Shown here piece after piece: positions 2,455 to 53,818 of a stretch of DNA of 64,000 nucleotides. The position numbers were made by a program, and so were the translations under genes. Source of the DNA: a phage; sequence record PZ452582.1. One strand, written 5' to 3'. The notes beneath the pieces were generated by a model. That model saw nothing but the letters and a program-made list of their open reading frames with translations, made no database searches and was not told where the DNA came from. Each line of letters opens with the position of its first letter. The stretch's first letter is position 1.

Positions 2455-2482
2455 AGCCCCGACCGAAAGGTTGGGGCTTTTT
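2455..2482 (+). terminator. rho-independent terminator
   Basis: agccccgacc-gaaa-ggttggggct stem followed by TTTTT. Confidence 0.7.
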
Positions 2483-2484
2483 GG

Positions 2485-2532: not shown

Positions 2533-2706
2533 ATGAAATCATATACTCAATTTTTAAATGAAGCGGTGTTAAATGAAGCATCTAGCACCGAAATTCAAGC
2601 TGTCGCAAAAGCAGCCATTGCAGCGGGTAAATATTCTTATAAAGATGCTTCTGATGAATCGCGATTCCAGTTCGCACGCGACATGAAAGCGGAAGGATTT
2701 ACGTGA
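2533..2706 (+). CDS. small protein (57 aa) with capsid-targeting-sequence-like N-terminus (candidate internal protein)
   Basis: N-terminus MKSYTQFLNEA resembles T4 internal-protein CTS MKTYQEFIAEA; SD agga; late promoter upstream. Confidence 0.5.
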   Translation: MKSYTQFLNEAVLNEASSTEIQAVAKAAIAAGKYSYKDASDESRFQFARDMKAEGFT

Positions 2707-2718
2707 AATGCAGTTAGT

Positions 2719-3006
2719 ATGGCCTGGAAAAGTTTAGTTGCTACTGGAGCTGCTTTTGCAAAGGCTTCAGGTAAACCTGCTCCTAAGGCTGACCCTAAAG
2801 CAGCACAAGAAAAAAATATTGCTAAAGGAATTATCTCTAGGTATGAAGCAATTCTTAAAGAACTTTTGATAATTAAGACCGAAGGCCAGAAACTTGCGCG
2901 AGCTCATAGTTTCAAAGATAACCCACATGCTCACTCTCTTGAGTATGTTGAAGACATCCAAAAAATTATTAAAGACCGCATTTGGTCTGCTAAACAAATC
3001 AAATAA
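2719..3006 (+). CDS. hypothetical protein (95 aa), Lys/Ala-rich N-terminus
   Basis: ATG ORF ending just before a terminator hairpin. Confidence 0.55.
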   Translation: MAWKSLVATGAAFAKASGKPAPKADPKAAQEKNIAKGIISRYEAILKELLIIKTEGQKLARAHSFKDNPHAHSLEYVEDIQKIIKDRIWSAKQIK

Positions 3007-3013
3007 CATTCTT

Positions 3014-3042
3014 AGCCCCGACCAAAAGGTTGGGGCTTTTTG
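3014..3042 (+). terminator. rho-independent terminator (second copy of the 2455 hairpin)
   Basis: agccccgacc-aaaa-ggttggggct plus TTTTT; near-identical to 2455-2482. Confidence 0.7.
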
Positions 3043-3133
3043 GTATCTAGGCCTTTCCGGGCCTCTCTAGACATCATTTAGTTTCTACCCTTTATAATAT
3101 ATTATCCTATCTTTTAATTGCCCCTCCCTGCCC

Positions 3134-3250
3134 TAGAATTCCCCAAAACTTTTTAAAAATTTTTTCACAAAACAGTTTACATCCTTACCCTTCCATGGTA
3201 CTATACAACTATCAACTACTGATACAGAAAACAACTTGGAGAATGAAATG
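3134..3250 (+). repeat. promoter-leader cassette copy A (PeSL-like), near-identical to 46217-46316
   Basis: Shared tagaattcc...ttttcacaaaac(a/t)gtttaca...ccatggtactatacaactatcaactactgatacag...ttggagaat(g/a)aaatg. Confidence 0.7.
3176..3204 (+). promoter_or_regulatory. early sigma70-type promoter (TTTACA-17-TACTAT, A/T-rich UP region)
   Basis: GTTTAC -35 motif typical of T4 early promoters; 17 bp spacer. Confidence 0.7.
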
Positions 3251-3511
3251 GATAATTACGGCGAACTGTTCAACTTCTTTATGAAATGTGTTTCAGAAGA
3301 TTTTGGTCGTACAGTGAATGATATTAAAGTTATCGGTCCTGATCATCCGATGTTTGAAACTTACGCAGTAATGGGTAATGAAGATGGTCAGTGGTATACT
3401 GTAAAGGTTGTGATTAACATGTTCACTGCTGAAGGTTATGTTAAACTGTCTTCTAAAGTTTACCATGATAACGATGAAATCGCAGAAGAATATTTCAATA
3501 ATATGAAATAA
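3248..3511 (+). CDS. hypothetical protein (87 aa)
   Basis: Track ORF starts at TTG 3236; ATG 3248 has SD GGAG 6 nt upstream. Confidence 0.6.
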   Translation: MDNYGELFNFFMKCVSEDFGRTVNDIKVIGPDHPMFETYAVMGNEDGQWYTVKVVINMFTAEGYVKLSSKVYHDNDEIAEEYFNNMK

Positions 3512-3512
3512 G

Positions 3513-3541
3513 TTTACACAGGCTCATGATTGAGATATTAT
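3513..3541 (+). promoter_or_regulatory. early promoter (TTTACA-17-TATTAT) with 8 bp inverted repeat bracketing the -10
   Basis: GTTTAC motif; aggctcat (3520-3527) and atgagcct (3540-3547) flank the -10 hexamer. Confidence 0.6.
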
Positions 3542-3567
3542 GAGCCTATAACTTTGAGGAGAACATT

Positions 3568-3900
3568 ATGAAACGTAACTTTAGTAAAGCTTTTTGTAAT
3601 AGAAATTATTATCCTGAAGAGCTTTTTGAATCTAAGGACTTTAAAGAGTTTAACGAACGTTCTCAAAACATGCCTGTACAATGGGTGTTAGATTATGCCA
3701 AACGTATCTTTGAAGGTGTACGTTGGTTCAGTCCTGATGATGAAGCCCCATATTTTCAAAGGGCATGGTCTATAGTCAATCAAGCTTATATTGATGCTTT
3801 AGAAAATATTAATATTATGGATGATGATGCTTTGTTAATCATCGATGAGTCTATTAATAGTAGTATCGATAAATTTATTGATGAATTGGACGAAGAATAA
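3568..3900 (+). CDS. hypothetical protein (110 aa)
   Basis: ATG with SD gaggag. Confidence 0.65.
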   Translation: MKRNFSKAFCNRNYYPEELFESKDFKEFNERSQNMPVQWVLDYAKRIFEGVRWFSPDDEAPYFQRAWSIVNQAYIDALENINIMDDDALLIIDESINSSIDKFIDELDEE

Positions 3901-3901
3901 G

Positions 3902-3930
3902 TTTACAAACTCTTGGGAGTAGAGTATAAT
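3902..3930 (+). promoter_or_regulatory. early promoter (TTTACA-17-TATAAT) with inverted repeat gggagta/tactccc around the -10
   Basis: Consensus -10 and GTTTAC -35; inverted repeat 3915-3936. Confidence 0.7.
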
Positions 3931-3975
3931 ACTCCCACGGATTATAAAAACCCTTAATTAACTAAAGGAAATGCT

Positions 3976-7380: not shown

Positions 7381-7409
7381 TTTACTTTCTCCTAGAATTG
7401 TGATAGTAT
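7381..7409 (+). promoter_or_regulatory. early promoter (TTTACT-17-TAGTAT)
   Basis: GTTTAC motif upstream of denV. Confidence 0.55.
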
Positions 7410-7434
7410 ATTCACAGTTACTTGGAGGGATAAA

Positions 7435-7851
7435 ATGACTCGTATTAATTTGACTTTAGTATCTGAACTTGCTGATCAACATTTAATCGCAGAATACCGT
7501 GAATTGCCACGTGTTTTTGGTATAGTTCGTAAGCATGTGGCAAATGGTAAGCGCGTTAAAGATTTTAAAATATCTTCTAAATTTATTTTAGGTTCTGGTC
7601 ATGTTACTTTCTTTTACGATAAGTTAGAATTTTTGCGAAAGCGTCAATCGGACATTATAACGGAATGCTTAAAACGCGGGTTCAGTATAAAAGATACTGA
7701 AGTTCCTGACATCAGCGATATTCCAGTAGAATGGAAAAATGATTATAATCCATGCAAATCAGCTATTAAATTGAGTCAACAACGACTTGATGAAAAAATT
7801 TTAATGAAACCACATTGGTATAAGTATTACGGTAAAAATATTTACATTTAA
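7435..7851 (+). CDS. denV: endonuclease V (pyrimidine dimer DNA glycosylase)
   Basis: 138 aa, strong similarity to recalled T4 EndoV ([17 protein letters not shown]...[10 protein letters not shown]). Confidence 0.95.
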
Positions 7852-7860
7852 AGGAAACAT

Positions 7861-8334
7861 ATGAAAACATATCAAGAATTTATCACTGAAGCAGCTATTA
7901 ATTCTCAAATTATTGCTGAATCTTTTACTGATCTTTTGAAATTTAAAAAAGGTCAAAAAATCACTGCTGTATTGGATGATGGTACAGAAGTTGAGATGGA
8001 TGTACAGGGATATAATTATGCAGTAGATGGAAAACTGTATAATAAATCTCATGCTAAATTTGATTCATTTGACGACTTTGTTAATACAGTTGAAGATGAA
8101 AAAACTCGTAGATCCATTGCAACTGGTGATGCTAAGGTTCTTATGGCACATGGTCATGAACGCATTCGCGCTAAACAGAATAAAATGGGTGAAGATAATT
8201 TTGCATTAGTTGGTTATCAATCTGGTAAACAAACTTATGGCTATCAACGTACTGCTACCATGTATAATAAAAATGGTAAAATTGCCTTTGTGAATAGTAA
8301 GGGTTCTATTCAGTACGTTAAATCGTTCAAATAA
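7861..8334 (+). CDS. internal protein with capsid targeting sequence (IPII/IPIII family)
   Basis: N-terminus MKTYQEFITEA matches T4 internal-protein CTS; sits at the IP locus next to denV. Confidence 0.7.
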   Translation: MKTYQEFITEAAINSQIIAESFTDLLKFKKGQKITAVLDDGTEVEMDVQGYNYAVDGKLYNKSHAKFDSFDDFVNTVEDEKTRRSIATGDAKVLMAHGHERIRAKQNKMGEDNFALVGYQSGKQTYGYQRTATMYNKNGKIAFVNSKGSIQYVKSFK

Positions 8335-8468
8335 TATGGGAACAGCCTGGACCTCATTTGAGGTATTCCCGCCAACCTGTGATAAGGTCGAGCCAAAGCG
8401 CGGTAATGGGTAATGCAGGAATGGACAATTCATGCGCCACGGAATGGCCCAAATTTAGAGAGAATAAA

Positions 8469-9008
8469 ATGAGAACATTTTTAACTGGTCCTTATCTATC
8501 CCTGATGAATGCTTTTACACACCATTCTGACGCTAGAGTAGAAGAAATTTGTAAAAACGAATATATCCCGCCATTTGAAGAATTACTTAAACAGTACTGC
8601 ACACTTCGTATAGATGGTGGACGTCAATCCGGTAAATCAATTGCTGTGACTAACTTTGCTGCTAATTGGTTGTATGATGGCGGAACAGTTATTGTTCTTT
8701 CTAATACTTCAGCTTACGCTAAAATTTCTGCAAATAACATTAAAAAGGAATTTTCGCGTTATTCTAATGATGATATGCGTTTTCGTTTATTTACTGATTC
8801 TGTGCGCAGTTTTATTGGTAATAAAGGAAGCAAGTTCAGAGGTTTATCGCTTTCGCGAATTTTGTATATAATTGATGAGCCTGTCAAATCTCCTGATATG
8901 GATAAGATTTATAGCGTCCATATTGACACTGTACACTACTGCTGTAATAGTAAATGTTGCATTGGTGGTATTACTCGTCCACAGTTTTTCGTAATCGGAA
9001 TGCAATAA
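8469..9008 (+). CDS. hypothetical P-loop protein (179 aa)
   Basis: Walker A-like GGRQSGKS and Walker B-like LYIIDEP; track ORF extends upstream from TTG 8358 through a GC-rich leader. Confidence 0.5.
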   Translation: MRTFLTGPYLSLMNAFTHHSDARVEEICKNEYIPPFEELLKQYCTLRIDGGRQSGKSIAVTNFAANWLYDGGTVIVLSNTSAYAKISANNIKKEFSRYSNDDMRFRLFTDSVRSFIGNKGSKFRGLSLSRILYIIDEPVKSPDMDKIYSVHIDTVHYCCNSKCCIGGITRPQFFVIGMQ

Positions 9009-9334
9009 TGACAGACACACAGCTTTTCGAATATCTCTATTTTTCGCCAAAAACTATTAAAAATAAATTGGTAAATCATTTTGAAATTTTGGCAAATAAC
9101 AACATTTTAAGCGAATTTTATCCCAAGCAATACAAATTACAAAAAGGCGTATTCAAAGGATGCAGAGTTTTGTGCACTGCTCCTAACGCGCAGTTAATGA
9201 ATAAAATTCCATATTTTACCATGGAATTTATTGATGGACCTTTTAAAGGACTAATCACCCAAAGTTTAATGGCATATGATTCTGAGCCATTTTTAATTAA
9301 AGAACAATCTTGGATAAATTTATTTTCTAATTGA
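9008..9334 (+). CDS. hypothetical protein (108 aa)
   Basis: ATG overlaps upstream stop (TAATG); track ORF started earlier at a non-ATG codon. Confidence 0.5.
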
Positions 9335-9341
9335 GGTTTAT

Positions 9342-9704
9342 ATGAAAGCATATCAAATTCTTGAAGGCACACATAAAGGTACTATTTATTTTGAAGATGG
9401 TATTCAAGCACGAATTATTGTCTCTAAAACCTTTAAAGAGGACTCTTTTGTAGACCCGGAAATTTTCTACGGTTTGCATGCCCGTGAAATTGAAATTGAA
9501 ACACAACCTACAGTTAAAATTGAAGGTGGTCAACACCTGAACGTTAACGTTCTGCGTCGTGAAACTCTGGAAGATGCAGTTAAGCATCCGGAAAAATATC
9601 CGCAGCTGACCATCCGTGTATCCGGTTATGCAGTTCGCTTTAACTCTCTGACTCCGGAACAGCAGCGCGACGTTATCGCTCGTACCTTTACTGAGAGTTT
9701 GTAA
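9342..9704 (+). CDS. autonomous glycyl-radical cofactor, GrcA/YfiD-like (T4 Y06I-like)
   Basis: C-terminal 63 aa match recalled E. coli GrcA incl. RVSGYAVRF glycyl-radical motif; SD gagg. Confidence 0.85.
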
Positions 9705-9925
9705 TGGCAAAGATAATTATTGAAGGTTCTAAAGATGTGCTAAATGCTTTCGCCAAGTGGTTTAGTAATTCAGGCGAACAGCAATTTAACGAAGCCTGGA
9801 ATATGGGTGATATTGATGGAATTTATCCTACGACAGAAATTTCTGTTCAGGGATATGGCATTCATGAACCTATTCGTTTAGTTGAATATGATTTATGTAC
9901 TGGTGAGGAAGTCAAATATGATTGA
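9704..9925 (+). CDS. hypothetical protein (73 aa)
   Basis: ATG overlapping upstream stop. Confidence 0.5.
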   Translation: MAKIIIEGSKDVLNAFAKWFSNSGEQQFNEAWNMGDIDGIYPTTEISVQGYGIHEPIRLVEYDLCTGEEVKYD

Positions 9926-10184
9926 AGACATTAAAGGTTATAAGCCGCATACTGAAGAGAAAATCGGTAAAGTGAATGCTATCAAAGACGCTGAAGTTCG
10001 TTTAGGACTTATCTTTGATGCTTTATACGATGAATTTTGGGAAGCATTTGATAGCTGTGAAGATGATGAACTCGCGAAGAATTACGCCGAAAGCCTCGAT
10101 CAGTTAACTATTGCTAAAACGAAACTCAAAGAAGCTAGTATGTGGGCTTGTCGCGCAGTGTTCCAACCAGAGGAAAAATACTAA
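9918..10184 (+). CDS. hypothetical protein (88 aa)
   Basis: ATG 9918 with SD gagga; track ORF started at 9882. Confidence 0.5.
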
Positions 10185-10462
10185 TGGCTCAATTAAGCGC
10201 AGGGTTTGGTTATGAGTATTATACTGCCCCTCGTCGTGTATCTGTTGCTCCTAAGAAAATTCAAAGTCTTGATGATTTCCAGGAAGTAGTTCGTAACGCT
10301 TTTCAGGACTATGCACGTTATCTTAAAGAAGATTCACAGGACTGTCTCGAAGAAGATGAAATTGCTTACTATGAACAGCGTCTTGAACAGCTTAAAAACT
10401 TACATGAGGTTCGTGCAGAAGTTTCAAAGTCTATGAATAAATTGATCAGATTTAAAGAATAA
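10184..10462 (+). CDS. hypothetical protein (92 aa)
   Basis: TAATG overlap with upstream gene; SD gagga. Confidence 0.5.
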
Positions 10463-10465
10463 TTG

Positions 10466-10494
10466 TTTACTTTTCCTCTTGACTGTGGTATAAT
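10466..10494 (+). promoter_or_regulatory. early promoter (TTTACT-17-TATAAT)
   Basis: GTTTAC motif with consensus -10 upstream of regB. Confidence 0.75.
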
Positions 10495-14654: not shown

Positions 14655-14664
14655 ATTTTACCGG

Positions 14665-14693
14665 TTTACTTTCCGTTTGAGCTGTGGTACTAT
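14665..14693 (+). promoter_or_regulatory. early promoter (TTTACT-17-TACTAT)
   Basis: GTTTAC motif; shares ggtactatacaactatc leader with other copies. Confidence 0.65.
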
Positions 14694-14721
14694 ACAACTA
14701 TCGGATAAAGAGGAGAACATC

Positions 14722-18211: not shown

Positions 18212-18236
18212 ATTTCAAAAATTTTTCACAAAACTG

Positions 18237-18265
18237 TTTACAAGCATAAAGCTTTATGGTACTAT
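18237..18265 (+). promoter_or_regulatory. early promoter (TTTACA-17-TACTAT)
   Basis: GTTTAC motif; conserved ttttcacaaaac upstream and ggtactatacaactatcaa downstream. Confidence 0.65.
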
Positions 18266-18303
18266 ACAACTATCAAAACAAATGAGTAAATTGGAGATAC
18301 AAA

Positions 18304-18504
18304 ATGACTACTTTGAATAAACGTTTCGGTAAAGCTAAATCTGGTTGTGCAGCTGAACGTCGTTATGTTTTCGCTCAGTTAGAAGATGTAGAGTATCAGA
18401 TTAATCAAGTTCACATTACTGGTATCGAGCCTATGTGTGGCCTTGAAGCTCTTCGTGAAGTTCGTGACGGGTATCGTCGTGCCATCGAAGAAATGTCAAA
18501 ATAA
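18304..18504 (+). CDS. hypothetical protein (66 aa)
   Basis: SD ggag; ATG ORF. Confidence 0.5.
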   Translation: MTTLNKRFGKAKSGCAAERRYVFAQLEDVEYQINQVHITGIEPMCGLEALREVRDGYRRAIEEMSK

Positions 18505-18505
18505 G

Positions 18506-18534
18506 TATACAAACTGATAGGACTATGTTATAGT
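18506..18534 (+). promoter_or_regulatory. early promoter variant (TATACA-17-TATAGT) with inverted repeat taggacta/tagtccta around the -10
   Basis: Inverted repeat 18518-18541 flanks the -10 hexamer. Confidence 0.5.
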
Positions 18535-18561
18535 AGTCCTATCAAATCAAAGGAGAATAAA

Positions 18562-19631: not shown

Positions 19632-19934
19632 ATGTTATACTCAAAGGCTCGTGAAATTTATGAAACTAAAATTAAAGACGCGGTTCATCAGTTCGCAACG
19701 ACAATGCGTTGGACAAATGATTGGGAGTATTCAAAAAATCATAAGAAGCCCTTGGTGACAAGAAAGGCTCATATGTTAGTGTTAATAGACCGTGAGCAGA
19801 TTAAAGCCCGAGAAGCCCTCCAGAATCATAAAAAGGCTGCCTTTGAATGGTTTATGGATAACACTGCTCCTGAGACTAAGAAAGCAGTGAGCGCTTGGTT
19901 CAGTGGAAAAAATTGTGAAAGAAGTTTCTTTTAG
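19632..19934 (+). CDS. hypothetical protein (100 aa)
   Basis: ATG 19632 with SD ggagg; alternative ATG 19620. Confidence 0.5.
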   Translation: MLYSKAREIYETKIKDAVHQFATTMRWTNDWEYSKNHKKPLVTRKAHMLVLIDREQIKAREALQNHKKAAFEWFMDNTAPETKKAVSAWFSGKNCERSFF

Positions 19935-19937
19935 TTG

Positions 19938-19966
19938 TTTACAAGACCGTTCCTCTGTGGTACTAT
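19938..19966 (+). promoter_or_regulatory. early promoter (TTTACA-17-TACTAT)
   Basis: GTTTAC motif; same leader ggtactatacaactatcaactac. Confidence 0.6.
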
Positions 19967-19994
19967 ACAACTATCAACTACGGAGGAACACAAA

Positions 19995-30207: not shown

Positions 30208-30279
30208 ACATTCTGTATATTACCATTCTAAGCTATCGTTCCCTTCTTATCATTCCCTAAAATAATTTTCACAAAGTTG

Positions 30280-30308
30280 TTTACAACAAGTTCAAACCGT
30301 GGTATTAT
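30280..30308 (+). promoter_or_regulatory. early promoter (TTTACA-17-TATTAT)
   Basis: GTTTAC motif with ttttcacaaag upstream element. Confidence 0.6.
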
Positions 30309-36241: not shown

Positions 36242-36428
36242 CATTAATGATGAATTCATAGCAAACATTGATTATACCGAAGAAGATTCTAGATATGTTG
36301 GAATAATTTATATTACATCAAAAACAGCACAAGGCGTTGTTTGCATGGCTGAATTTGATGAATACTTTTTAGATTATGATGATATGATAGAATGGTCTAA
36401 AAGATACATTAAAAGGAATCTTTTGTGA
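36213..36428 (+). CDS. hypothetical protein (71 aa)
   Basis: 5' end shares about 30 nt with the start of the downstream HNH gene. Confidence 0.45.
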   Translation: MHTVKFSTFDINDEFIANIDYTEEDSRYVGIIYITSKTAQGVVCMAEFDEYFLDYDDMIEWSKRYIKRNLL

Positions 36429-37279
36429 AGAATTTTAAACTTGACATTAATGATGAATTTTTAATAAAGGAATTAGTTGAAAAATTAGCGTTGAGTGAAG
36501 AAGACGCCAAGTCTTACATTAATTTTATTTCTATGAATTCAACTGTTAAAACTCCAGGTAAAACGGAAGCACATCACGTGCTTCCTAAATCAATATTTCC
36601 TGAATATTTAAAATCTACATGGAATTTAGTTAATTTAAGTCATTTTAATCATTTTAAAGCACATTTCTTATTAGCAAAAGGTAAAAATGGAAAAATGCTA
36701 AATGCTTTAAATAGAATGATGTCAGGAAAAACATATAAAAATTTATCTTTAGCCGAAGTTGATTTAATAGCTGCTGAATATAGTTTTATAAAACAAGATG
36801 TAAGTGACACAATATCAAAAAGGCTTCAACAATATTATTCAAATCCGCAAAATAGAAATGCTGCTAGAGAAAGGGCATTAAAATATTTTTCAGTAGCAAA
36901 AAATAGGAAAGATAACAAAGAAAGATTAAATAATTTTAAAACAAAACAAAAAATTTCAATGGCTTCAAGGGAATGGTTTAATAACGAAGAAAATAAAATT
37001 AAACACCAAAAGGCTGTTCGTGCTGCTTTATCAAAACCTGAATATAAAATAGCTATATCAAATTCAGTAGCTGCTAGTTGGAAAAATCCGGAGATTAGAA
37101 AAGCTCATATAGCATCTCGACGAAAAGGCTATCATTGGGATAATAAAGATAAATTGTATGAATTGTGGATATCATATAATCGTCCTAAACATGTGATGTT
37201 TAGGAAAATGTTAGTTAAGAATGGATATCCAATAGAGGCTTCATTACAGGCTTTAGTTAAAGAATTTTCTTCATTGTGA
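36425..37279 (+). CDS. free-standing HNH homing endonuclease with NUMOD-like DNA-binding repeats
   Basis: HNH motif AHHVLPKS...NLVNLSHFNHFKAH; repeated IS.S..W motifs; GTG start overlapping upstream stop; AT-rich. Confidence 0.65.
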   Translation: MKNFKLDINDEFLIKELVEKLALSEEDAKSYINFISMNSTVKTPGKTEAHHVLPKSIFPEYLKSTWNLVNLSHFNHFKAHFLLAKGKNGKMLNALNRMMSGKTYKNLSLAEVDLIAAEYSFIKQDVSDTISKRLQQYYSNPQNRNAARERALKYFSVAKNRKDNKERLNNFKTKQKISMASREWFNNEENKIKHQKAVRAALSKPEYKIAISNSVAASWKNPEIRKAHIASRRKGYHWDNKDKLYELWISYNRPKHVMFRKMLVKNGYPIEASLQALVKEFSSL

Positions 37280-37294
37280 ACAATTGGATACAAA

Positions 37295-38977
37295 ATGAAA
37301 TCATTTAAACTTAATAGAGTAAAATATAAAAATATAATGTCAGTTGGTCAAAATGGAGTTGACATTCAATTAGATAAGGTTCAAAAAACTCTTATTACTG
37401 GACGAAATGGCGGTGGTAAGTCTACTATGTTAGAAGCCATCACATTTGGGCTTTTTGGCAAGCCATTTCGTGATGTAAAGAAAGGCCAATTAATAAACAG
37501 CACAAATAAGAAAGAACTTTTAGTTGAACTGTGGATGGAATATGATGAGAAAAAGTACTATATCAAAAGAGGACAAAAACCAAACGTTTTCGAAATCACC
37601 GTTAACGGTACACGTCTTAATGAATCTGCCAGCAGTAAAGATTTCCAAGCAGAATTTGAACAGCTTATCGGAATGTCATATGCCAGTTTCAAGCAGATTG
37701 TTGTCCTTGGTACAGCAGGGTATACCCCTTTCATGGGTTTGTCGACCCCTGCACGAAGAAAGCTTGTGGAAGACCTGCTTGAGGTAGGAACATTAGCTGA
37801 AATGGATAAGCTTAATAAAGCACTAATACGTGAATTAAATTCACAAAACCAAGTGCTTGATGTTAAAAAAGATAGTATTATCCAACAAATTAAAATATAT
37901 AATGATAATGTTGAACGCCAGAAAAAATTGTCTGGTGACAACCTTACTCGTCTTCAAAATATGTATGATGATTTGGCAAAAGAAGCTAGAACGCTAAAAT
38001 CAGAAATAGAAGAAGTTAATGAAAGATTAGTTAATATTGTTTTAGATGAAGACCCGACTGATGCATTTAATAAAATCGGTCAAGAAGCAGTTTTAATTAA
38101 ATCAAAAATTGACTCGTATAATAAAGTCATTAATATGTATCACGAAGGCGGATTATGCCCAACCTGCTTGTCACAATTAAGTTCAGGTGATAAAGTTGTT
38201 TCTAAAATTAAAGATAAAGTTTCTGAATGTACGCATTCGTTTGAACAGCTTTCAACACATCGTGATAATTTAAAAGTTCTTGTTGATGAATACCGAGATA
38301 ATATTAAAACCCAACAGTCGTTGGCAAATGATATTCGCAATAAAAAGCAATCTCTAATCACGACGGTAGATAAAGCTAAAAAAGTTAAAGCAGCTATAGA
38401 AAAAGCATCTTCTGAGTTTATTGACCATGCTGATGAAATAGCACTGCTTCAAGAAGAACTTGATAAAATTGTTAAGACAAAAACTAATTTAGTAATGGAA
38501 AAATACCACCGAGGAATTTTGACTGATATGCTCAAAGATTCTGGTATTAAAGGTGCTATTATTAAAAAGTACATTCCATTATTTAATAAGCAGATTAACC
38601 ATTATCTTAAAATAATGGAAGCGGATTATGTGTTTACATTAGATGAAGAATTTAATGAGACAATTAAATCCCGTGGTCGTGAAGATTTTAGTTATGCTTC
38701 ATTCAGTCAAGGTGAAAAAGCACGAATTGATATTGCTCTTTTATTTACTTGGCGTGATATTGCTGAAAAAGTTTCAGGTGTTAAAATAAACACACTAATT
38801 CTTGATGAAGTTTTTGATTCAGCGACCGATGTTGAAGGTGTAAAAGCTATTTCAACTATTTTAGATAGTTTAAAAAATACTAATGTTTTTGTTATTTCGC
38901 ATAGAGACCATGACCCACAAGCATATGGTCAGCACCTTCAAATGAAGAAAGTTGGTCGATTTACTGTAATGGTTTAA
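37295..38977 (+). CDS. 46: recombination ATPase gp46 (Rad50/SbcC-like)
   Basis: 560 aa; Walker A GRNGGGKST; zinc-hook CPTC; long coiled coil. Confidence 0.95.
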   Translation: MKSFKLNRVKYKNIMSVGQNGVDIQLDKVQKTLITGRNGGGKSTMLEAITFGLFGKPFRDVKKGQLINSTNKKELLVELWMEYDEKKYYIKRGQKPNVFEITVNGTRLNESASSKDFQAEFEQLIGMSYASFKQIVVLGTAGYTPFMGLSTPARRKLVEDLLEVGTLAEMDKLNKALIRELNSQNQVLDVKKDSIIQQIKIYNDNVERQKKLSGDNLTRLQNMYDDLAKEARTLKSEIEEVNERLVNIVLDEDPTDAFNKIGQEAVLIKSKIDSYNKVINMYHEGGLCPTCLSQLSSGDKVVSKIKDKVSECTHSFEQLSTHRDNLKVLVDEYRDNIKTQQSLANDIRNKKQSLITTVDKAKKVKAAIEKASSEFIDHADEIALLQEELDKIVKTKTNLVMEKYHRGILTDMLKDSGIKGAIIKKYIPLFNKQINHYLKIMEADYVFTLDEEFNETIKSRGREDFSYASFSQGEKARIDIALLFTWRDIAEKVSGVKINTLILDEVFDSATDVEGVKAISTILDSLKNTNVFVISHRDHDPQAYGQHLQMKKVGRFTVMV

Positions 38978-39230: not shown

Positions 39231-39620
39231 ATGACTAAAATTACTGTGAATTATACTGTTGATGTAAAAGATATTCAGCCAAAACACGTGCGTTCTGAAT
39301 CAAATCCACAAAACCAAAATAAAATTCGTCGAGCATGGGTTTTGTCTCTTTCTGATAACGCAATGGAAGTTATTCAGAACAAAATTAAATCTGCACCTGC
39401 TCGTCATGCGTATTATGAAGCTATCGATCGTGAAGTAAGTAATAAATGGATTGAACTAATGCGCAAACATACTACAGAATCCCTAAATGCCGGTGCTAAA
39501 TTTATTATGACTTCATGTGGTGAACGCCTTGAAGATGAATATTGCGGTAATGCAGATGAACGTCTAATTGTTGCTGCTCAAATTGTTGCCGAAACAATTG
39601 TGGCCGAGTTTAATAAATGA
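39231..39620 (+). CDS. rpbA: RNA polymerase-binding protein RpbA-like (129 aa)
   Basis: Size and position between 46 and 45 match T4 rpbA; no diagnostic motif. Confidence 0.5.
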
Positions 39621-40504
39621 ATTTAGTATATCTTATTAGCTTTCCAGAGCGGGAAGCTAAAAATATTTTTCCGTGTTATTATATAGGTTCAAAAATTAAC
39701 GCAATTTTCGATGGAACAAATATAATTGATTCAGCTGGAAAGATTTATACTGGAAGCGTGTCATCGAGTTATAGCGATGAATATTTTGAACTTATTAAAA
39801 CCACTAAATATACCGTCAAAATTTTAGCTGAAACTATATTAGATCCAAGAAAATTGGAGAGATTTTTTCAATTAAAAGTTAAAGCAAAAAGTAATATAAA
39901 ATATTTTAATAAAGCATACGCAGATGAAAATACTTTAATTGGTGCTAAAGGATATGGAACATATAAAAATGTTTTAACTGGAAAAATTGTAAAGCTTTCG
40001 CAATCTGAAATTACGCCTGAGTATGTCGGTATTCGTAAAGGTTACAAACATAGTTCTGAAGTAAAATACAAAATATCTAATTCAATGAAGAATCACTGGA
40101 CCGATGAGAAAAAGCTTAAACTCTCAAATAAGATGAAATTGAAATATCTTGATTGTAGTTATGCTAAAAAGTTTAGTGATATAATGAATTCAGAAAGTGT
40201 AAGATCAAAAATTTCTAAATCTCAAAAAGAATTATGGAATAATGCTGAAAGAAGACAGAGAGCTTCAATTCAAGCAACTGTTAGAAATAATTTACCGGAA
40301 TTCAAATCAAAATTTAGAAAATCTAAAGCTAGAGGAACTTGGATTGAACATGAAGATGAATTAAAATCTTTATGGCATGCTTACGGAAAACCAAGTTATA
40401 ATAAATTTCGTAAAATTGCAGTAGCTAATGGGTTTAACGACGAATCTTATCAGGGTGCTGTACGGTCCTGGTCTAACTATTATGTAAATAGGAAATTGAA
40501 ATGA
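39617..40504 (+). CDS. free-standing GIY-YIG homing endonuclease (Seg-like) with NUMOD-like repeats
   Basis: LVYLISF...(11 aa)...YYIGSK matches GIY-YIG; C-terminal domain resembles that of the HNH ORF at 36425. Confidence 0.65.
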
Positions 40505-46130: not shown

Positions 46131-46143
46131 TAGAATAAATCTA

Positions 46144-46164
46144 GGGACCTCCGGGTCCCTTTTT
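46144..46164 (+). terminator. rho-independent terminator
   Basis: gggacc-tccg-ggtccc plus TTTTT. Confidence 0.8.
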
Positions 46165-46216
46165 CATACAAGTAATATAAATCTATACTTATGAAAAACA
46201 GATGATTCTGGACCTT

Positions 46217-46316
46217 TAGAATTCCCTAAAAAATTTTCACAAAACTGTTTACAAGACTGTTCTTCCATGGTACTATACAACTATCAACTACTGATACAGA
46301 TTTGGAGAATAAAATG
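46217..46316 (+). repeat. promoter-leader cassette copy B (PeSL-like), near-identical to 3134-3250
   Basis: Same -35/-10, leader and ttggagaat.aaaatg start context as copy A. Confidence 0.7.
46248..46276 (+). promoter_or_regulatory. early promoter (TTTACA-17-TACTAT)
   Basis: GTTTAC motif. Confidence 0.65.
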
Positions 46317-46550
46317 AAAATTGTTATGGGATGCTTAGCAGTTTGTTTAGTTGCATTAGCAGCAGTTCCATTTGTTAGTGTTGAAAATGATACTCAACCT
46401 GCGATTGAATCTAGCACCGTTATTCACACTAATGGTAAAATATCAGTTAAAATTGATGATAATCTTCATGTGAATACAAATGGATCTTTAGGTGTGCAAA
46501 TGGGTAATACCTGCATAAGCACTACTGGAGTAATTACTACTTGCATTTGA
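46314..46550 (+). CDS. secreted small protein (78 aa) with N-terminal signal peptide
   Basis: MKIVMGCLAVCLVALAAVPF hydrophobic N-terminus; SD ggag; track ORF began at TTG 46302. Confidence 0.55.
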   Translation: MKIVMGCLAVCLVALAAVPFVSVENDTQPAIESSTVIHTNGKISVKIDDNLHVNTNGSLGVQMGNTCISTTGVITTCI

Positions 46551-46560
46551 GGAAATTATT

Positions 46561-46941
46561 ATGAAAATCGCTATTTTGGTTATTGCATTAGGTCTTACTG
46601 GTTGTGTAGCTCAAGGACCGGTAGTAAATCAGTCTGATGTAGGAAAAATTGTAAACTGTTCAAGCAAATTTTATAATCCTAATGTCAAGTGTTATAAAGA
46701 AGCTCCAAAGCAAACAGTAGAACAAATGCAGGCGAATTTTGACGAAGCTATTCGTCCAGATGAATCTGCTCAAGCATATCGTAATTCGGATGTAATTACA
46801 CGCGAAGAAAAAATTGAAAATTACTGCGCCGAGCTTTGGGCTAATTGGGCTAATAATTACCAATGGCGTACTGGTAAAAATGCTCCGATGGAGTATGTAG
46901 TGAATTCTTATAATTCATGTGTAAAAAATTTGACTAAGTGA
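46561..46941 (+). CDS. predicted lipoprotein (126 aa)
   Basis: Signal peptide with lipobox LTGC (MKIAILVIALGLTGC); SD gagga. Confidence 0.6.
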   Translation: MKIAILVIALGLTGCVAQGPVVNQSDVGKIVNCSSKFYNPNVKCYKEAPKQTVEQMQANFDEAIRPDESAQAYRNSDVITREEKIENYCAELWANWANNYQWRTGKNAPMEYVVNSYNSCVKNLTK

Positions 46942-51968: not shown

Positions 51969-51997
51969 TTTACAAGCTGACAAGACTATGGTATAGT
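51969..51997 (+). promoter_or_regulatory. early promoter (TTTACA-17-TATAGT) with inverted repeat caagacta/tagtcttg
   Basis: GTTTAC motif; inverted repeat 51981-52003 around the -10. Confidence 0.6.
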
Positions 51998-52026
51998 AGT
52001 CTTGTTGGTTAAATGAGGAGATTGTT

Positions 52027-52528: not shown

Positions 52529-52822
52529 ATGAAAAAATTTATCTTTGCTGCAATTTTTGCTTTAGCTTCTTGTGCTGCTCAGCCTGCTATGGCAGGTTAT
52601 GATAAAGATTTGTGTGAATGGTCTATGACTGCGGATCAGACTGAAGTTGAAACTCAAATTGAAGCGGATATTATGAATATCGTTGAGCGCGATCGTCCTG
52701 AAATGAAAGCTGAAGTGCAAAAACAGCTTAAGTCTGGTGGTGTAATGCAGTATAATTATGTTCTGTATTGCGATAAAAACTTTAATAACAAAAATATCGT
52801 AACCGAAATCACAGGTGAATAA
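52529..52822 (+). CDS. sp: spackle-like periplasmic protein (T4 sp / 61.3)
   Basis: 97 aa with signal peptide MKKFIFAAIFALASCAAQPAMA; matches T4 Sp size and position. Confidence 0.7.
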   Translation: MKKFIFAAIFALASCAAQPAMAGYDKDLCEWSMTADQTEVETQIEADIMNIVERDRPEMKAEVQKQLKSGGVMQYNYVLYCDKNFNNKNIVTEITGE

Positions 52823-53456
52823 TATGATTTATTATATGCACAAAAATCCACCGTTTAAATACGGTAAATTTCCTGATGCACAATGTTATAATATAACGCC
52901 TGATGAAAATAACCGTGGATATCTTATTGGCACAATTTTTGTAATTGTTAAAGATAACGAAATCGTTGCCTGGGCAGATTTTAAAGGTACAACACATGAT
53001 GTTAATCCGGTGCCTTTCACATATTACAATATAATGGATTTGGCATATGATTATAATTGGTTTAATCATGACACGTTGGCTCATATTGAAGGTGTAGGAT
53101 TTGACATCTCTTATTCTAGCTACTCATTGTGTCCTATGAGTCGGGCTCATAAAGAACCTGAATATTTTTCATTTAGGAAACGTGTAAACTTTAAACGCAA
53201 CACAGAGTATGTCGGTGGAATATTTGTTAAAGATAATCGAATTATTCGTATTAATTATCCTTTGAGCGTTAGTCAAAAAGATATTGATGTTGATTTAGAT
53301 TTCACTGAAAATAATATTAATCATATTGCTTCTGTGTATTTTGGTATCGATCACAAAATTGTAATATGTGGATATGAATTACCGTTTGAAGAACAGCCTA
53401 AAGTAAATGTTTCTATTGATGACCAAATTTTTAATGCTTTTATGAATAAAGGTTAA
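52815..53456 (+). CDS. T4 61.2-like protein (213 aa)
   Basis: Position and size match T4 61.2 (reported anti-DarT factor AdfA family, from memory). Confidence 0.5.
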   Translation: MNNMIYYMHKNPPFKYGKFPDAQCYNITPDENNRGYLIGTIFVIVKDNEIVAWADFKGTTHDVNPVPFTYYNIMDLAYDYNWFNHDTLAHIEGVGFDISYSSYSLCPMSRAHKEPEYFSFRKRVNFKRNTEYVGGIFVKDNRIIRINYPLSVSQKDIDVDLDFTENNINHIASVYFGIDHKIVICGYELPFEEQPKVNVSIDDQIFNAFMNKG

Positions 53457-53460
53457 TATG
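53409..53460 (+). repeat. direct repeat copy 1 (gene 3' end plus next start), repeated at 53767-53818
   Basis: tctattgatgaccaaatttttaatgcttttatgaata(a/g)aggttaatatg. Confidence 0.8.
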
Positions 53461-53814
53461 TATAGTTCTGAATTTTCATATTTAAAAATGGAAAAAATTT
53501 CATACGATTTTATAGATGAAAAGGTTTATTACAGTTTCCATGAACCACGTTTTAATAGTGAGGTTGGGTTTATTGTAGTAAAAGACAATTTTATTTTAAA
53601 AATATATTCAGCATTAAAGGATTTTCATTACGAAAATATTAACCTAAAATTTAATAAAGAAAACGTTCGTAATTGCGCAGTAACAATTACGGGAAATAAA
53701 GGTACATGTGTTATGCTATCTGATGAAATTAATGATTTGCTAAATGATGCAGAAAATATTACTGCACCATCTATTGATGACCAAATTTTTAATGCTTTTA
53801 TGAATAGAGGTTAA
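53458..53814 (+). CDS. T4 61.1-like protein (118 aa)
   Basis: C-terminal SIDDQIFNAFMNRG duplicates the tail of the upstream gene. Confidence 0.5.
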   Translation: MYSSEFSYLKMEKISYDFIDEKVYYSFHEPRFNSEVGFIVVKDNFILKIYSALKDFHYENINLKFNKENVRNCAVTITGNKGTCVMLSDEINDLLNDAENITAPSIDDQIFNAFMNRG

Positions 53815-53818
53815 TATG
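53767..53818 (+). repeat. direct repeat copy 2
   Basis: Near-identical to 53409-53460. Confidence 0.8.

Follow-up and report, generated by a model that had tools for sequence, protein, structure and literature searches.

Two copies of an early promoter-leader module 43 kb apart in a T4-like phage genome, probably paralogous and bearing the marks of exchange

Two stretches of about 100 bp, 43 kb apart and both on the + strand, recur in a 64,000-nt piece of phage DNA (record PZ452582.1), referred to here as the window. The question raised by them is whether they resemble each other only as promoters of one class do, or whether they are copies of one module that exchanges sequence with its relatives and marks the genes behind it as accessory cargo, as a sequence-only reading had proposed. 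Both copies were found where that reading had placed them, at 3134-3250 (copy A) and 46217-46316 (copy B).

The window is a segment of a Tequatrovirus (T4-like) genome and was compared with five relatives, T4, T2, T6, RB32 and fPS-65, in all of which A and B are syntenic and kept at the same loci. Copy A aligns to the stretch upstream of T4 e.8 and corresponds to the early promoter of that gene, and copy B aligns to the T4 gene 43/imm.1 intergenic region and corresponds to the promoter between these genes. Over the module copy A is 94% identical to the T4 e.8 promoter, at the same locus and in the same orientation, with allelic differences only (spacer tccttaccc and A at position -37 in this phage). 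The T4 counterpart of copy B is named Pe26.4 and its region starts at map unit 27,044 (PMC6024815). Copy B is likewise 94% identical to Pe26.4 over the module, at the same locus and in the same orientation, but its leader reads GATACAG instead of GATACGG and an extra 78-aa ORF precedes imm.1. Map unit 27,044 coincides with the A located 7 nt past the -10 hexamer at the homologous position of copy B, and for this reason the putative start of copy A was placed at A3211. No published name for the promoter counterpart of copy A was found in the literature consulted. The annotation of fPS-65 predicts early promoters at both loci, each with an upstream terminator, the one after gene 43 at the same place as in the window. 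The coordinates of the features are collected in Table 1.

Table 1. Features of the two modules, their relatives and their surroundings in the window
Feature	Position	Strand	Details
First copy of terminator 3014-3042	2455..2483	+	direct-repeat match
Intrinsic terminator closing the unit upstream of copy A	3014..3042	+	stem AGCCCCGACC/GGTTGGGGCT, 10 pairs, T run
Copy A upstream block	3134..3174	+	TAGAATTCCCC, then A/T-rich UP-like tract AAAACTTTTTAAAAATTTTTTCACAAAACA
Copy A core promoter	3175..3204	+	GTTTACA, 17-nt spacer, TGG, -10 TACTAT (3199-3204)
Copy A leader, 37 nt	3211..3247	+	GGAG Shine-Dalgarno 3238-3241; putative start A3211
e.8 homologue, 87 aa, phrog_2678	3248..3511	+	after copy A in 5/5 comparators
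Early promoter of e.7	3513..3541	+	11-nt inverted repeat embeds -10; left joint of e.7 cassette (3568-3900)
Early promoter of e.6	3902..3930	+	8-nt inverted repeat around -10; right joint of e.7 cassette
Early promoter	7381..7409	+	left end of 3-kb T6 deletion
Early promoter upstream of regB	10466..10494	+	right end of 3-kb T6 deletion
Partial copy, mobD.5 homologue promoter	14664..14702	+	shares TGGTACTATACAACTATC
Family copy, nrdC.10-type promoter	18217..18276	+	shares UP tract, GTTTACA, TGGTACTATACAACTATCAA
Inserted cassette	18304..18544	+	66-aa ORF 18304-18504 (phrog_6200), then degenerate promoter 18505-18544 with 11-nt inverted repeat
Family copy, nrdC.8 homologue promoter	19918..19990	+	-10 region and leader recur at locus B in T2
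Looser copy, 55.6 homologue promoter	30268..30308	+	shares ATTCCCTAAAA..TTTTCACAAAGTTGTTTACA and TGGTAT; without leader
Gene 43 (DNA polymerase) intrinsic terminator	46143..46165	+	AGGGACC/GGTCCCT then TTTTT
Copy B upstream block	46217..46246	+	TAGAATTCCCT, then A/T-rich UP-like tract
Copy B core promoter	46247..46276	+	GTTTACA, 17-nt spacer, TGG, -10 TACTAT (46271-46276)
Copy B leader, 31 nt	46283..46313	+	GGAGAATAAAA at 46304-46314, RegB/S1 consensus match
Variable 78-aa ORF, phrog_4189, signal-peptide-like N-terminus	46314..46550	+	between copy B and imm.1
imm.1 homologue (DUF5481)	46561..46941	+	B leader fused directly to imm.1 in T4, T6, RB32

The two copies share an A/T-rich UP region, GTTTACA, a 17-nt spacer, TGg-TACTAT, the leader and the GGAG Shine-Dalgarno/ATG context. 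The longest exact run common to them, CTTCCATGGTACTATACAACTATCAACTACTGATACAGA, comprises 39 nt (3190-3228 and 46262-46300) and is the longest exact direct repeat in the window. Identity is 86% over an ungapped stretch of 73 nt. Beyond it, homology reaches TAGAATTCCC on the upstream side, interrupted by an 11-nt indel within the A/T tract, and TTGGAGAAT(G/A)AAATG on the downstream side, with a 6-nt indel on the way. Over the whole modules of 118 and 101 nt, with these two indels, global identity is about 75%, so the description of the copies as near-identical is true of the core with its 39-nt exact run and not of the module as a whole, at 75-86% identity.

To set this likeness against that of the class, all 17 GTTTAC-N17-TAnnnT promoters in the window were compared in 136 pairs. 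In the 30 nt downstream of the -10 hexamer the A-B pair ranked first of 136 (83% identity versus a mean of 39%, sd 12%) and in the promoter core it ranked fourth (77% versus 60%, sd 8%). The A-B similarity exceeds the level of the promoter class, and the copies are thus more alike than shared class membership would lead one to expect.

Both copies have the features of T4-type early (Pe) promoters, namely GTTTAC at about -36 to -31, a 17-nt spacer and a -10 of the form TAnnnT, as well as an extended -10 (TGn) and A/T-rich UP-like tracts directly upstream of the -35, AAAAATTTTTTCACAAAAC in copy A and AAAAAATTTTCACAAAAC in copy B. An extended consensus, the 'uber' UP/-35/TGn/-10, has been described for T4 early promoters (PMC2988021). 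On these grounds A and B are assigned to the T4-type Pe promoters and are predicted to be active immediately after infection. Promoter activity, start sites and RegB cleavage in this phage are predicted here by homology.

The modules belong to a wider family. The 15-mer TACTATACAACTATC occurs at five exact sites in the window, all on the + strand (3199, 14688, 18260, 19961 and 46271), versus 0.22 expected. Partial copies had been listed at 14665, 18237, 19938 and 30280; the first three carry the exact 15-mer, and the last shares only the UP/-35/TGG part. The nrdC.10-type copy is fused at CTATCAA to the leader of a foreign cassette. A close variant of the A/B leader precedes nrdC.10 in T4, T6, T2 and RB32, and the leader ACAACTATCAACTACTGATACAG also stands before motA in related contigs. 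There are five to seven family copies per genome, each a promoter ahead of a gene.

The likeness of the copies to the promoter-early-stem-loop elements (PeSLs) of T4-type phages, which the sequence-only reading had pointed out, holds in part. Comeau, Arbiol and Krisch 2014 (PMC4122927) give the PeSLs of T4/PST the consensus TTTACW-N17-TAYWAT with an A/T-rich region before it; each unit ends in a Shine-Dalgarno sequence and ATG, and a stem-loop precedes the promoter within the same intergenic stretch. These units are dispersed over the genome and border on indels that distinguish close relatives, and they have been proposed as places where homologous exchange occurs. Both copies have this promoter consensus (TTTACA-17-TACTAT), the A/T-rich region, the Shine-Dalgarno sequence and start codon at the 3' end, about 100 bp kept among dispersed copies, chimeric elements, and indels or replacements between close relatives, whose enrichment was judged against a uniform null. 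For the stem-loops the correspondence is less clear. The stems described for T4/PST in that paper are of the AGNA-loop-TCNT type and lie just upstream, whereas A and B have G+C-rich terminator-like stems (3014-3037 and 46143-46160), at a distance from the -35 of 134 nt in A and of 88 nt in B; these differ in sequence, lie outside the shared repeat and are ordinary terminators of the upstream units. The PeSLs of RB49/phi1 (Arbiol et al. 2010, PMC2839356) conserve about 100 bp with promoter and terminator function; their crossovers were mapped to the A/T region or to the interval from the -10 to the ATG, and their cassettes consist of one or a few ORFans. In the length conserved, the promoter and terminator function, the crossover zones and the small cassettes they resemble A and B, but their boxes are near-consensus TTGACA/TATAAT, and their stems, of G-tract/C-tract type, frequently lie between or over these boxes. 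In the window such stems were seen in promoters P3513, P3902 and P51969 and at 18505-18544, not in A or B; a stem-loop of the RB49 style inside either promoter was rejected, since only the 6-nt palindromes GAATTC and CCATGG are present there. Morons and integron cassettes are named as comparisons in PMC2839356. The single small accessory genes arriving with their own expression signals recall both, but unlike integron cassettes they have no integrase or attC, and the repeated regulatory sequence itself gives the homology for exchange.

The leaders end in a sequence of possible regulatory importance. The strong RegB/S1 site consensus is GG*AGRAYARAA (Durand et al. 2006, reviewed in PMC3014915). 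In copy B GGAGAATAAAA matches GGAGRAYARAA at 11 of 11 positions, as one of two matches in the window, and in copy A GGAGAATGAAA matches at 10 of 11; the Shine-Dalgarno context of nrdC.10 is also an exact match to the 11-nt consensus. Folding of both leaders and both whole modules gave z = +1.0, +1.0, +0.5 and -0.25, i.e. no structure, with +1.0 for the leader RNA of copy A. The two leaders are accordingly described as candidate RegB/S1 sites in unpaired translation-initiation regions. Like RegB/S1 sites in early mRNA, both lie in the unpaired initiation region of an early gene; the likeness covers only the last ~11 nt of the repeat and is known here as sequence matches. A search of Rfam (E<=1) with the copy A region 2900-3400 gave at best 18.6 bits versus a gathering score of 50. 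A structured cis-regulatory RNA was rejected, as folding was not below that of shuffled controls and nothing meaningful was found in Rfam for 2900-3400.

The comparators and further records contain alleles in which parts of different family members are combined. In fPS-65 the short UP tract of B type and the spacer agactgtt are found at the A locus, enclosed by A-specific flanks, and A and B are 92% identical there, in comparison to 75-82% in the other genomes. The 11-nt shorter, B-like allele of the A/T tract was found at the A locus in fPS-65 and at loci L005 and L015. In T6 the B locus has the A-type spacer tccctgtt, and in T2 the upstream part of B continues into a -10 region and leader of nrdC.8 type, with a different ORF behind them. 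A further chimeric element, at T6 7395, is the joint of a 3-kb deletion in which the upstream part of P7381 and the downstream part of P10466 are joined in register within GTTTACTTT; the T6 annotation puts e beside regB. The hybrid alleles carry the 11-nt indel together with 4-5 linked substitutions, moved together between loci. At the level of sequence comparison, the hybrid alleles show exchange between paralogous promoters. They are a minority: with a score of at least 99%, the full fPS-65 type is present in 2 of 543 records; with one of at least 95%, the short-UP state at A is present in 70 records and the T6 type in 32. Apart from the hybrids, the evolution of A and B mostly follows the locus (orthologues 91-99% identical, paralogues 75-82%), so conversion would be occasional and not continuous. 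An exact-pattern scan of IMG/VR with a 23-mer yielded 12 loci, which supply extra alleles and are too few for statistics.

Indel and replacement joints between the related phages fall in some cases in or beside promoter modules. Upstream of copy A the cassettes are bracketed by duplicated terminators. The terminator closing the unit before copy A is the second copy of a 36-nt direct repeat, 97% identical to 2452-2487; the two terminators bracket a disrupted RB32ORF133c-like gene (2533-3006), annotated in RB32 as 'flanked by 34 bp imperfect direct repeat', and breakpoints versus T4, T6 and fPS-65 fall at the second terminator. Downstream of e.8, breakpoints lie at 3560-3564 versus RB32 and fPS-65, beside the e.7 promoter, and at 3900-3955 versus RB32, T2 and fPS-65, around the e.6 promoter. 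Between P3513 and P3902 e.7 is replaced or deleted, and RB32ORF130c is annotated 'replaces e.7'. T4, T6 and RB32 lack the cassette with the 66-aa ORF. Mosigvirus JK36 has it, behind a promoter of its own, with 91-97% nucleotide identity and joints in the promoter/leader on both sides.

In total 6 of 46 breakpoint clusters lay in promoter modules, which make up 3.2% of the span (binomial p = 0.003). The null of this test was uniform; viable indels have to end in intergenic sequence, which is where promoters are located in any case. The remaining 40 of 46 were located away from promoter modules; several of the larger insertions match the positions of homing-endonuclease genes (mobB, I-TevII, seg-like) in the annotations of the comparators, and other clusters lie at short direct repeats.

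The proposal that the genes downstream of the repeats are shuffled cargo fared differently from locus to locus. It agrees with copy B, where T4, T6 and RB32 lack the 78-aa ORF and T2 has a different ORF in its place, and with P18237, where the 66-aa ORF is variably present. It fails for copy A because e.8 is conserved, following the promoter in all five comparators, and the variation concerns the neighbours of e.8; nor does it apply at 14665, 19938 and 30280, where the downstream sequence is collinear with all five. The 78-aa ORF was found in 322 of ~543 phage records with the module, always near the slot after copy B. A deletion between two imperfect 14-nt repeats (ATGAAAAT...), which sit at the two start codons, accounts for its presence or absence no less well than recombination in the promoter does. 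The flanking ORFs matched only families of unknown function in PHROGs and Pfam, plus DUF5481 for imm.1, and for two window-specific insertion ORFs (36425-37279 and 39617-40504) no Pfam family was found.

Taken together, A and B are very probably paralogous copies of one sub-family of T4-type Pe promoter-plus-leader modules, which head the immediate-early units e.8 and imm.1/imm and undergo exchange of the PeSL type. By homology to the T4 Pe class, the upstream intrinsic terminator would close the preceding unit, and the UP-like tract, GTTTACA, 17-nt spacer, TGn and TACTAT would recruit the unmodified host sigma-70 RNA polymerase straight after infection. Transcription would start about 7 nt past the -10 (A3211, A46283) and yield an unstructured leader of 31-37 nt, the GGAG Shine-Dalgarno of which may drive translation. 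Later the same GGAG may become a RegB cleavage site, shutting off the mRNA, since it matches the RegB/S1 consensus. The two copies would descend from a common module, and about 100 nt of dispersed direct homology could serve as a substrate for phage homologous recombination. Short non-reciprocal conversion tracts would keep the copies alike, and crossovers in or beside the modules would, as in the PeSL model, delete, insert or replace the small accessory ORFs flanked by them.

The likeness could instead be the functional consensus of one promoter class, kept by the same selection with no descent or exchange beyond it. The extended consensus known for T4 early promoters (PMC2988021) speaks for this, as does the window itself, in which GTTTAC-N17-TAnnnT is common to all 17 promoters, and TGG and a weak a..c.tatc past the -10 to many of them. 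The A-B match, however, runs 24 nt past the -10 into transcribed sequence, without counterpart in the other promoters, covers the 3' half of the spacer and includes the longest exact run in the window; moreover, convergence does not explain an indel linked to substitutions in the hybrids. We consider this explanation improbable. Slightly more credible, though still unlikely, is that the leader acts in cis as an RNA element co-regulating e.8, imm.1/imm, nrdC.10 and motA post-transcriptionally and that selection keeps it alike. The occurrence of the leader or its close variant before motA and nrdC.10 and the exact RegB/S1 consensus in B and nrdC.10 would fit such an element, and the leaders fold less than shuffled controls do, which is required of RegB substrates. 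On the other hand, the leader has no predicted structure and the copy A region no Rfam match, and the part upstream of the GGAG varies by small indels among orthologues (CTACTGATAC, CTGATAC, CTAATAC) while the gene is retained. Recognition by RegB reportedly needs only GGAG with a 3' A-rich context. The module matches are named almost entirely as coliphage-group T4-likes, and consequently there is no sign of conservation beyond close relatives. This explanation is also compatible with paralogous Pe modules and is no true alternative to them.

Two further readings were rejected and are regarded as having next to no chance of being correct. A mobile or integrative element that has the repeats as its ends or attachment sites is suggested by their direct orientation and by a misc_feature 'attL' on the B leader in the T6 RefSeq record NC_054907. 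Yet the essential replication genes lie in the 43 kb between the copies, and their order is kept in all five comparators; no integrase is annotated within this interval, and the five to seven copies per genome are each placed as a promoter before a gene. The simplest account of the 'attL' label is that a prophage finder automatically marked a repeat. T4, besides, is a virulent phage. A small protein encoded on the opposite strand across the promoter (for example RB32ORF132w and T2 CDS0061) is suggested by reverse-strand ORFs starting MYST(M/T)EE.. at copy B (46280-46164) and at 19970-19782, similar to ORFs annotated in RB32 and T2. In copy A, however, this frame (TTG TAT AGT ACC ATG GAA GGG TAA) stops after 7 codons, lengths and ends differ at every locus, and the + strand promoter elements account for all conserved features.

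The repeat is thus a member of an established class of T4 control elements, which double as recombination joints where small accessory genes are swapped, and in this sense it is ordinary; its shuffling pattern matches the PeSL-type modular exchange set out in PMC2839356 and PMC4122927 and is therefore already known. Paralogous Pe modules at these loci add clean nucleotide-level examples from the best-studied phage genus to the existing model and open no new question: the B-type core at the A locus of fPS-65, the in-register promoter-promoter deletion of T6 and the promoter-bounded cassette shared by Tequatrovirus and Mosigvirus. The core invariant between A and B stretches from the 3' half of the spacer to about +18 (TTCCATGG-TACTAT-ACAACTATCAAC...). 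There is a slim chance that it is a recognition element for a phage or host factor, such as one setting the Alt/ModA response, promoter escape or RegB/S1 targeting, and would define a co-regulated immediate-early sub-regulon, or that its uniformity is kept by targeted and not general recombination.

For annotation, two predicted immediate-early starts can be placed at about 3211 and 46283, and the ORFs 46314-46550 and 18304-18504 can be flagged as variably present accessory cassettes. The repeat nature of the modules also explains the spurious 'att' sites and tiny reverse-strand ORFs produced by automated tools.

Copies A and B of the early promoter-leader module were both found where the sequence-only reading had placed them. 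Both regions are matched at 95-99 % identity by hundreds of Tequatrovirus (T4-like) genomes (megablast). The window is antiparallel to the standard T4 map and takes in, in this order, the tRNA region, e, the nrdC and gene 55 clusters, and genes 47, 46, 45, 44, 62 and 43, extending past gene 42. In T4 the intergenic space of gene 43 that holds copy B is directly followed by imm.1.

Positions of copies A and B and of the terminator-like elements preceding them
Feature	Position	Strand	Location
Copy A	3134-3250	+	upstream of the e.8 homologue (ATG 3248)
Copy B	46217-46316	+	intergenic space 3' of gene 43 (stop 46130)
Terminator-like hairpin and T run	3014-3037		134 nt before the copy A -35
Terminator-like hairpin and T run	46143-46160		88 nt before the copy B -35

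The longest exact direct repeat of the window is a 39-nt run common to A (3190-3228) and B (46262-46300), and the copies are 86 % identical over 73 nt ungapped (repeat family D1). Allowing for two indels, of 11 nt within the A/T tract and of 6 nt before the Shine-Dalgarno sequence, the homology spans TAGAATTCCC to the ATG with a global identity of approximately 75 %. The 15-mer TACTATACAACTATC occurs five times in the window, always on the + strand, against 0.22 expected. It is present at three of the proposed partial copies (14665, 18237 and 19938), whereas the fourth, at 30280, matches only the upstream part (family D2).

Seventeen GTTTAC-N17-TAnnnT promoters on the + strand of the window were compared pairwise. 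Over the 30 nt following the -10, A and B were the closest of the 136 pairs (83 % identity, class mean 39 %, sd 12 %), so the outcome that would have refuted the reading, copies no more alike than other promoters of their class, did not occur. The repeat is real and exceeds both chance and class-level similarity. In the promoter core the A-B pair ranked fourth (77 % versus 60 %). Comparable closeness is seen for other pairs elsewhere in the module (core: 19938/46248 and 15477/51969; upstream: 14665/57930), so the early promoters of the window make up a network of modules with partial homology, in which A-B is the strongest link.

Each copy comprises GTTTACA, a 17-nt spacer, TGG and TACTAT, preceded by the A/T-rich tract typical of the T4 early 'UP/-35/TGn/-10' promoters, a class that both copies match (PMC2988021). 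The T4 counterpart of copy B is Pe26.4, for which map unit 27,044 is given as the start of the downstream region (PMC6024815). This base is an A located 7 nt after the -10, counted back from the imm.1 ATG (27,013), and by homology to it the transcription starts are placed at 46283 (B) and 3211 (A), with predicted leaders of 31 and 37 nt. The leaders fold worse than shuffled controls (z = +1.0), and an Rfam search, which covered the copy A region only, gave no match. What had been described as a start context corresponds in sequence to a known element, the strong RegB/S1 cleavage site of T4 early mRNAs, GG*AGRAYARAA (PMC3014915): GGAGAATAAAA of copy B matches this consensus at 11/11 positions, one of two such matches in the window, and GGAGAATGAAA of copy A at 10/11.

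A close variant of the A/B leader heads nrdC.10 in T4. Outside the window, motA (Pfam MotA_activ and MotCF) of two IMG/VR contigs (L006, 149-833, and L013) has the same promoter -10 and leader as A/B through GATACAG. The leaders of A, B, motA and nrdC.10 may share a regulatory role, although nothing here requires it.

The alleles of both modules were compared in the homologous 50 kb of T4, T6, T2, RB32 and Yersinia phage fPS-65. A and B occupy the same loci in all five, and in the fPS-65 record each is marked as a predicted early promoter with a terminator upstream. Identity is 91-99 % between orthologous modules and 75-82 % between the A-B paralogues, thus descent is mostly by locus, with clear exceptions. 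At the A locus of fPS-65 the module matches window B exactly from TAGAATTCCCT to GATACAG, with the short A/T tract and agactgtt spacer but A-specific flanks, and the A-B identity in this phage reaches 92 %. The B locus of T6 has the A-type spacer tccctgtt, and in T2 the upstream half of B continues into a -10 region and leader of the nrdC.8 type (window 19938), followed by a different ORF. Window B carries GATACAG, like A, whereas B of T4, T6, RB32 and fPS-65 carries GATACGG, with small deletions just 5' of it in T6 and RB32. Movement of the 11-nt indel and 4-5 substitutions as a linked set is the signature of conversion or crossover rather than of convergence. The hybrid states are minority alleles: among the 543 records of the phage collection matching promoter-module queries, the full fPS-65-type hybrid (at least 99 %) was found in 2, the short A/T tract at A (at least 95 %) in 70 and the T6-type B (at least 95 %) in 32. 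In T6 (NC_054907, 6008-6047) the leader of the imm.1 promoter bears a misc_feature 'attL', which an automatic prophage finder most likely assigned because of the A/B-type repeat.

Rearrangements were also found at the modules (P with a number denotes an early promoter at that window position). T6 lacks window 7394-10462, so e adjoins regB in its annotation, and the joint is a chimeric promoter, P7381 in its upstream half and P10466 in its downstream half, with the fusion inside GTTTACTTT. Gene e.7 (3568-3900), between P3513 and P3902, has given way to another gene in RB32 (annotated 'replaces e.7'), differs in T2 and is missing from fPS-65. Upstream of A, the window and RB32 have a gene with a copy of the terminator on either side, as a 36-nt direct repeat, and fPS-65 has one further gene bracketed likewise.

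The 78-aa ORF after B (46314-46550) is shared with fPS-65, missing from T4, T6 and RB32 and replaced in T2; it occurs in 322 phage records, as against the 543 matching the module queries, each time near the slot after B. The T4 arrangement could equally have arisen by deletion between imperfect 14-nt repeats at two start codons (ATGAAAAT...), hence this event alone does not implicate the promoter. A 66-aa ORF and a degenerate promoter (18304-18544) follow P18237 in the window and are missing from T4, T6 and RB32; in Mosigvirus JK36 this cassette is found at 91-97 % nucleotide identity behind that phage's own GTTTACA-N17-TACTAT promoter. Its left joint in the window is at CTATCAA, just past the -10, and its right joint lies past the downstream promoter remnant, immediately 5' of nrdC.10 GGAGAATAAAATG. 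The layout is that predicted by the promoter-early stem-loop (PeSL) model, across a genus boundary. Of the 46 clusters of indel breakpoints, six lie within promoter modules, which constitute 3.2 % of the span compared (binomial p = 0.003). The test is weak: its null is uniform, and viable joints are confined between genes, where promoters sit.

At the nrdC.10/nrdC.11 junction T2 (L018, 17515-18200) has one additional gene, named 'RNA polymerase ADP-ribosylase' in its annotation, and fPS-65 (L020, record ~52882-53449) two small hypothetical genes, each insertion lying between tandem terminator-plus-early-promoter units.

The phenomenon is already described: Arbiol et al. 2010 (PMC2839356) introduced the PeSL concept, Comeau et al. 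2014 (PMC4122927) extended it to the T4/PST pair, and both A and B fit the consensus of the latter study, TTTACW-N17-TAYWAT. The proposal that A and B are PeSL modules is essentially right, in view of this fit and of the indel joints and chimeric promoters at modules. Its soft point is the stem-loop, present in each intergenic unit, yet distant and unshared between the copies. In the RB49/phi1 type the stem-loop overlaps the -10, as in the neighbours P3513, P3902, P51969 and 18505-18544. Inverted repeats of 8-11 nt embed the -10 hexamer at 3520-3547, 3914-3937, 51980-52005 and 18515-18544, one of these four promoters being degenerate, and a weaker form of the arrangement is seen at promoter 15477.

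A and B both belong to one sub-family of T4 early promoter-leader modules. From the promoter class and from T4, the module would recruit host RNA polymerase at once and yield an open leader that carries a strong GGAG Shine-Dalgarno sequence, and its mRNA would be silenced by RegB/S1. The likeness of A and B probably reflects common origin with occasional non-reciprocal exchange. A reciprocal crossover would remove 43 kb including essential replication genes, so only conversion should survive for this pair, whereas nearby promoter pairs could delete or capture accessory genes. The observed pattern matches: conversion for A-B, loss and capture of accessory genes at nearby pairs. The view that the downstream genes are shuffled cargo is borne out for B and 18237; it does not hold for A, 14665, 19938 or 30280.

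Several other features of the window were recorded. The adjacent ORFs 2533-2706 and 2719-3006 match the N- and C-terminal parts of phrog_2280 (RB32ORF133c homologue), hence an RB32ORF133c-like gene is split here. Its N-terminus, MKSYTQFLNEA, resembles the capsid-targeting sequence of T4 internal proteins, as do those of the ORFs at 7861 (MKTYQEFITEA) and 53816 (MKTYKEFIKED). Compared with all five relatives the window has an insertion of 875 nt (39615-40489), between rpbA-side and gene 45-side sequence, that contains a 295-aa ORF (39617-40504), and compared with T4, RB32 and fPS-65 it has one of 861 nt (36443-37303) that holds a 284-aa ORF (36425-37279); Pfam searches of the two ORFs gave no family. 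T6 has a homing endonuclease annotated at the place of the latter insertion. Finally, a 49-nt repeat (53412-53460 / 53770-53818; 98 % identical, 37-nt exact run; family D13) forms the 3' ends of the adjacent ORFs 52815-53456 and 53458-53814, and this shared end, ...SIDDQIFNAFMN(K/R)G in both products, suggests a tandem duplication.
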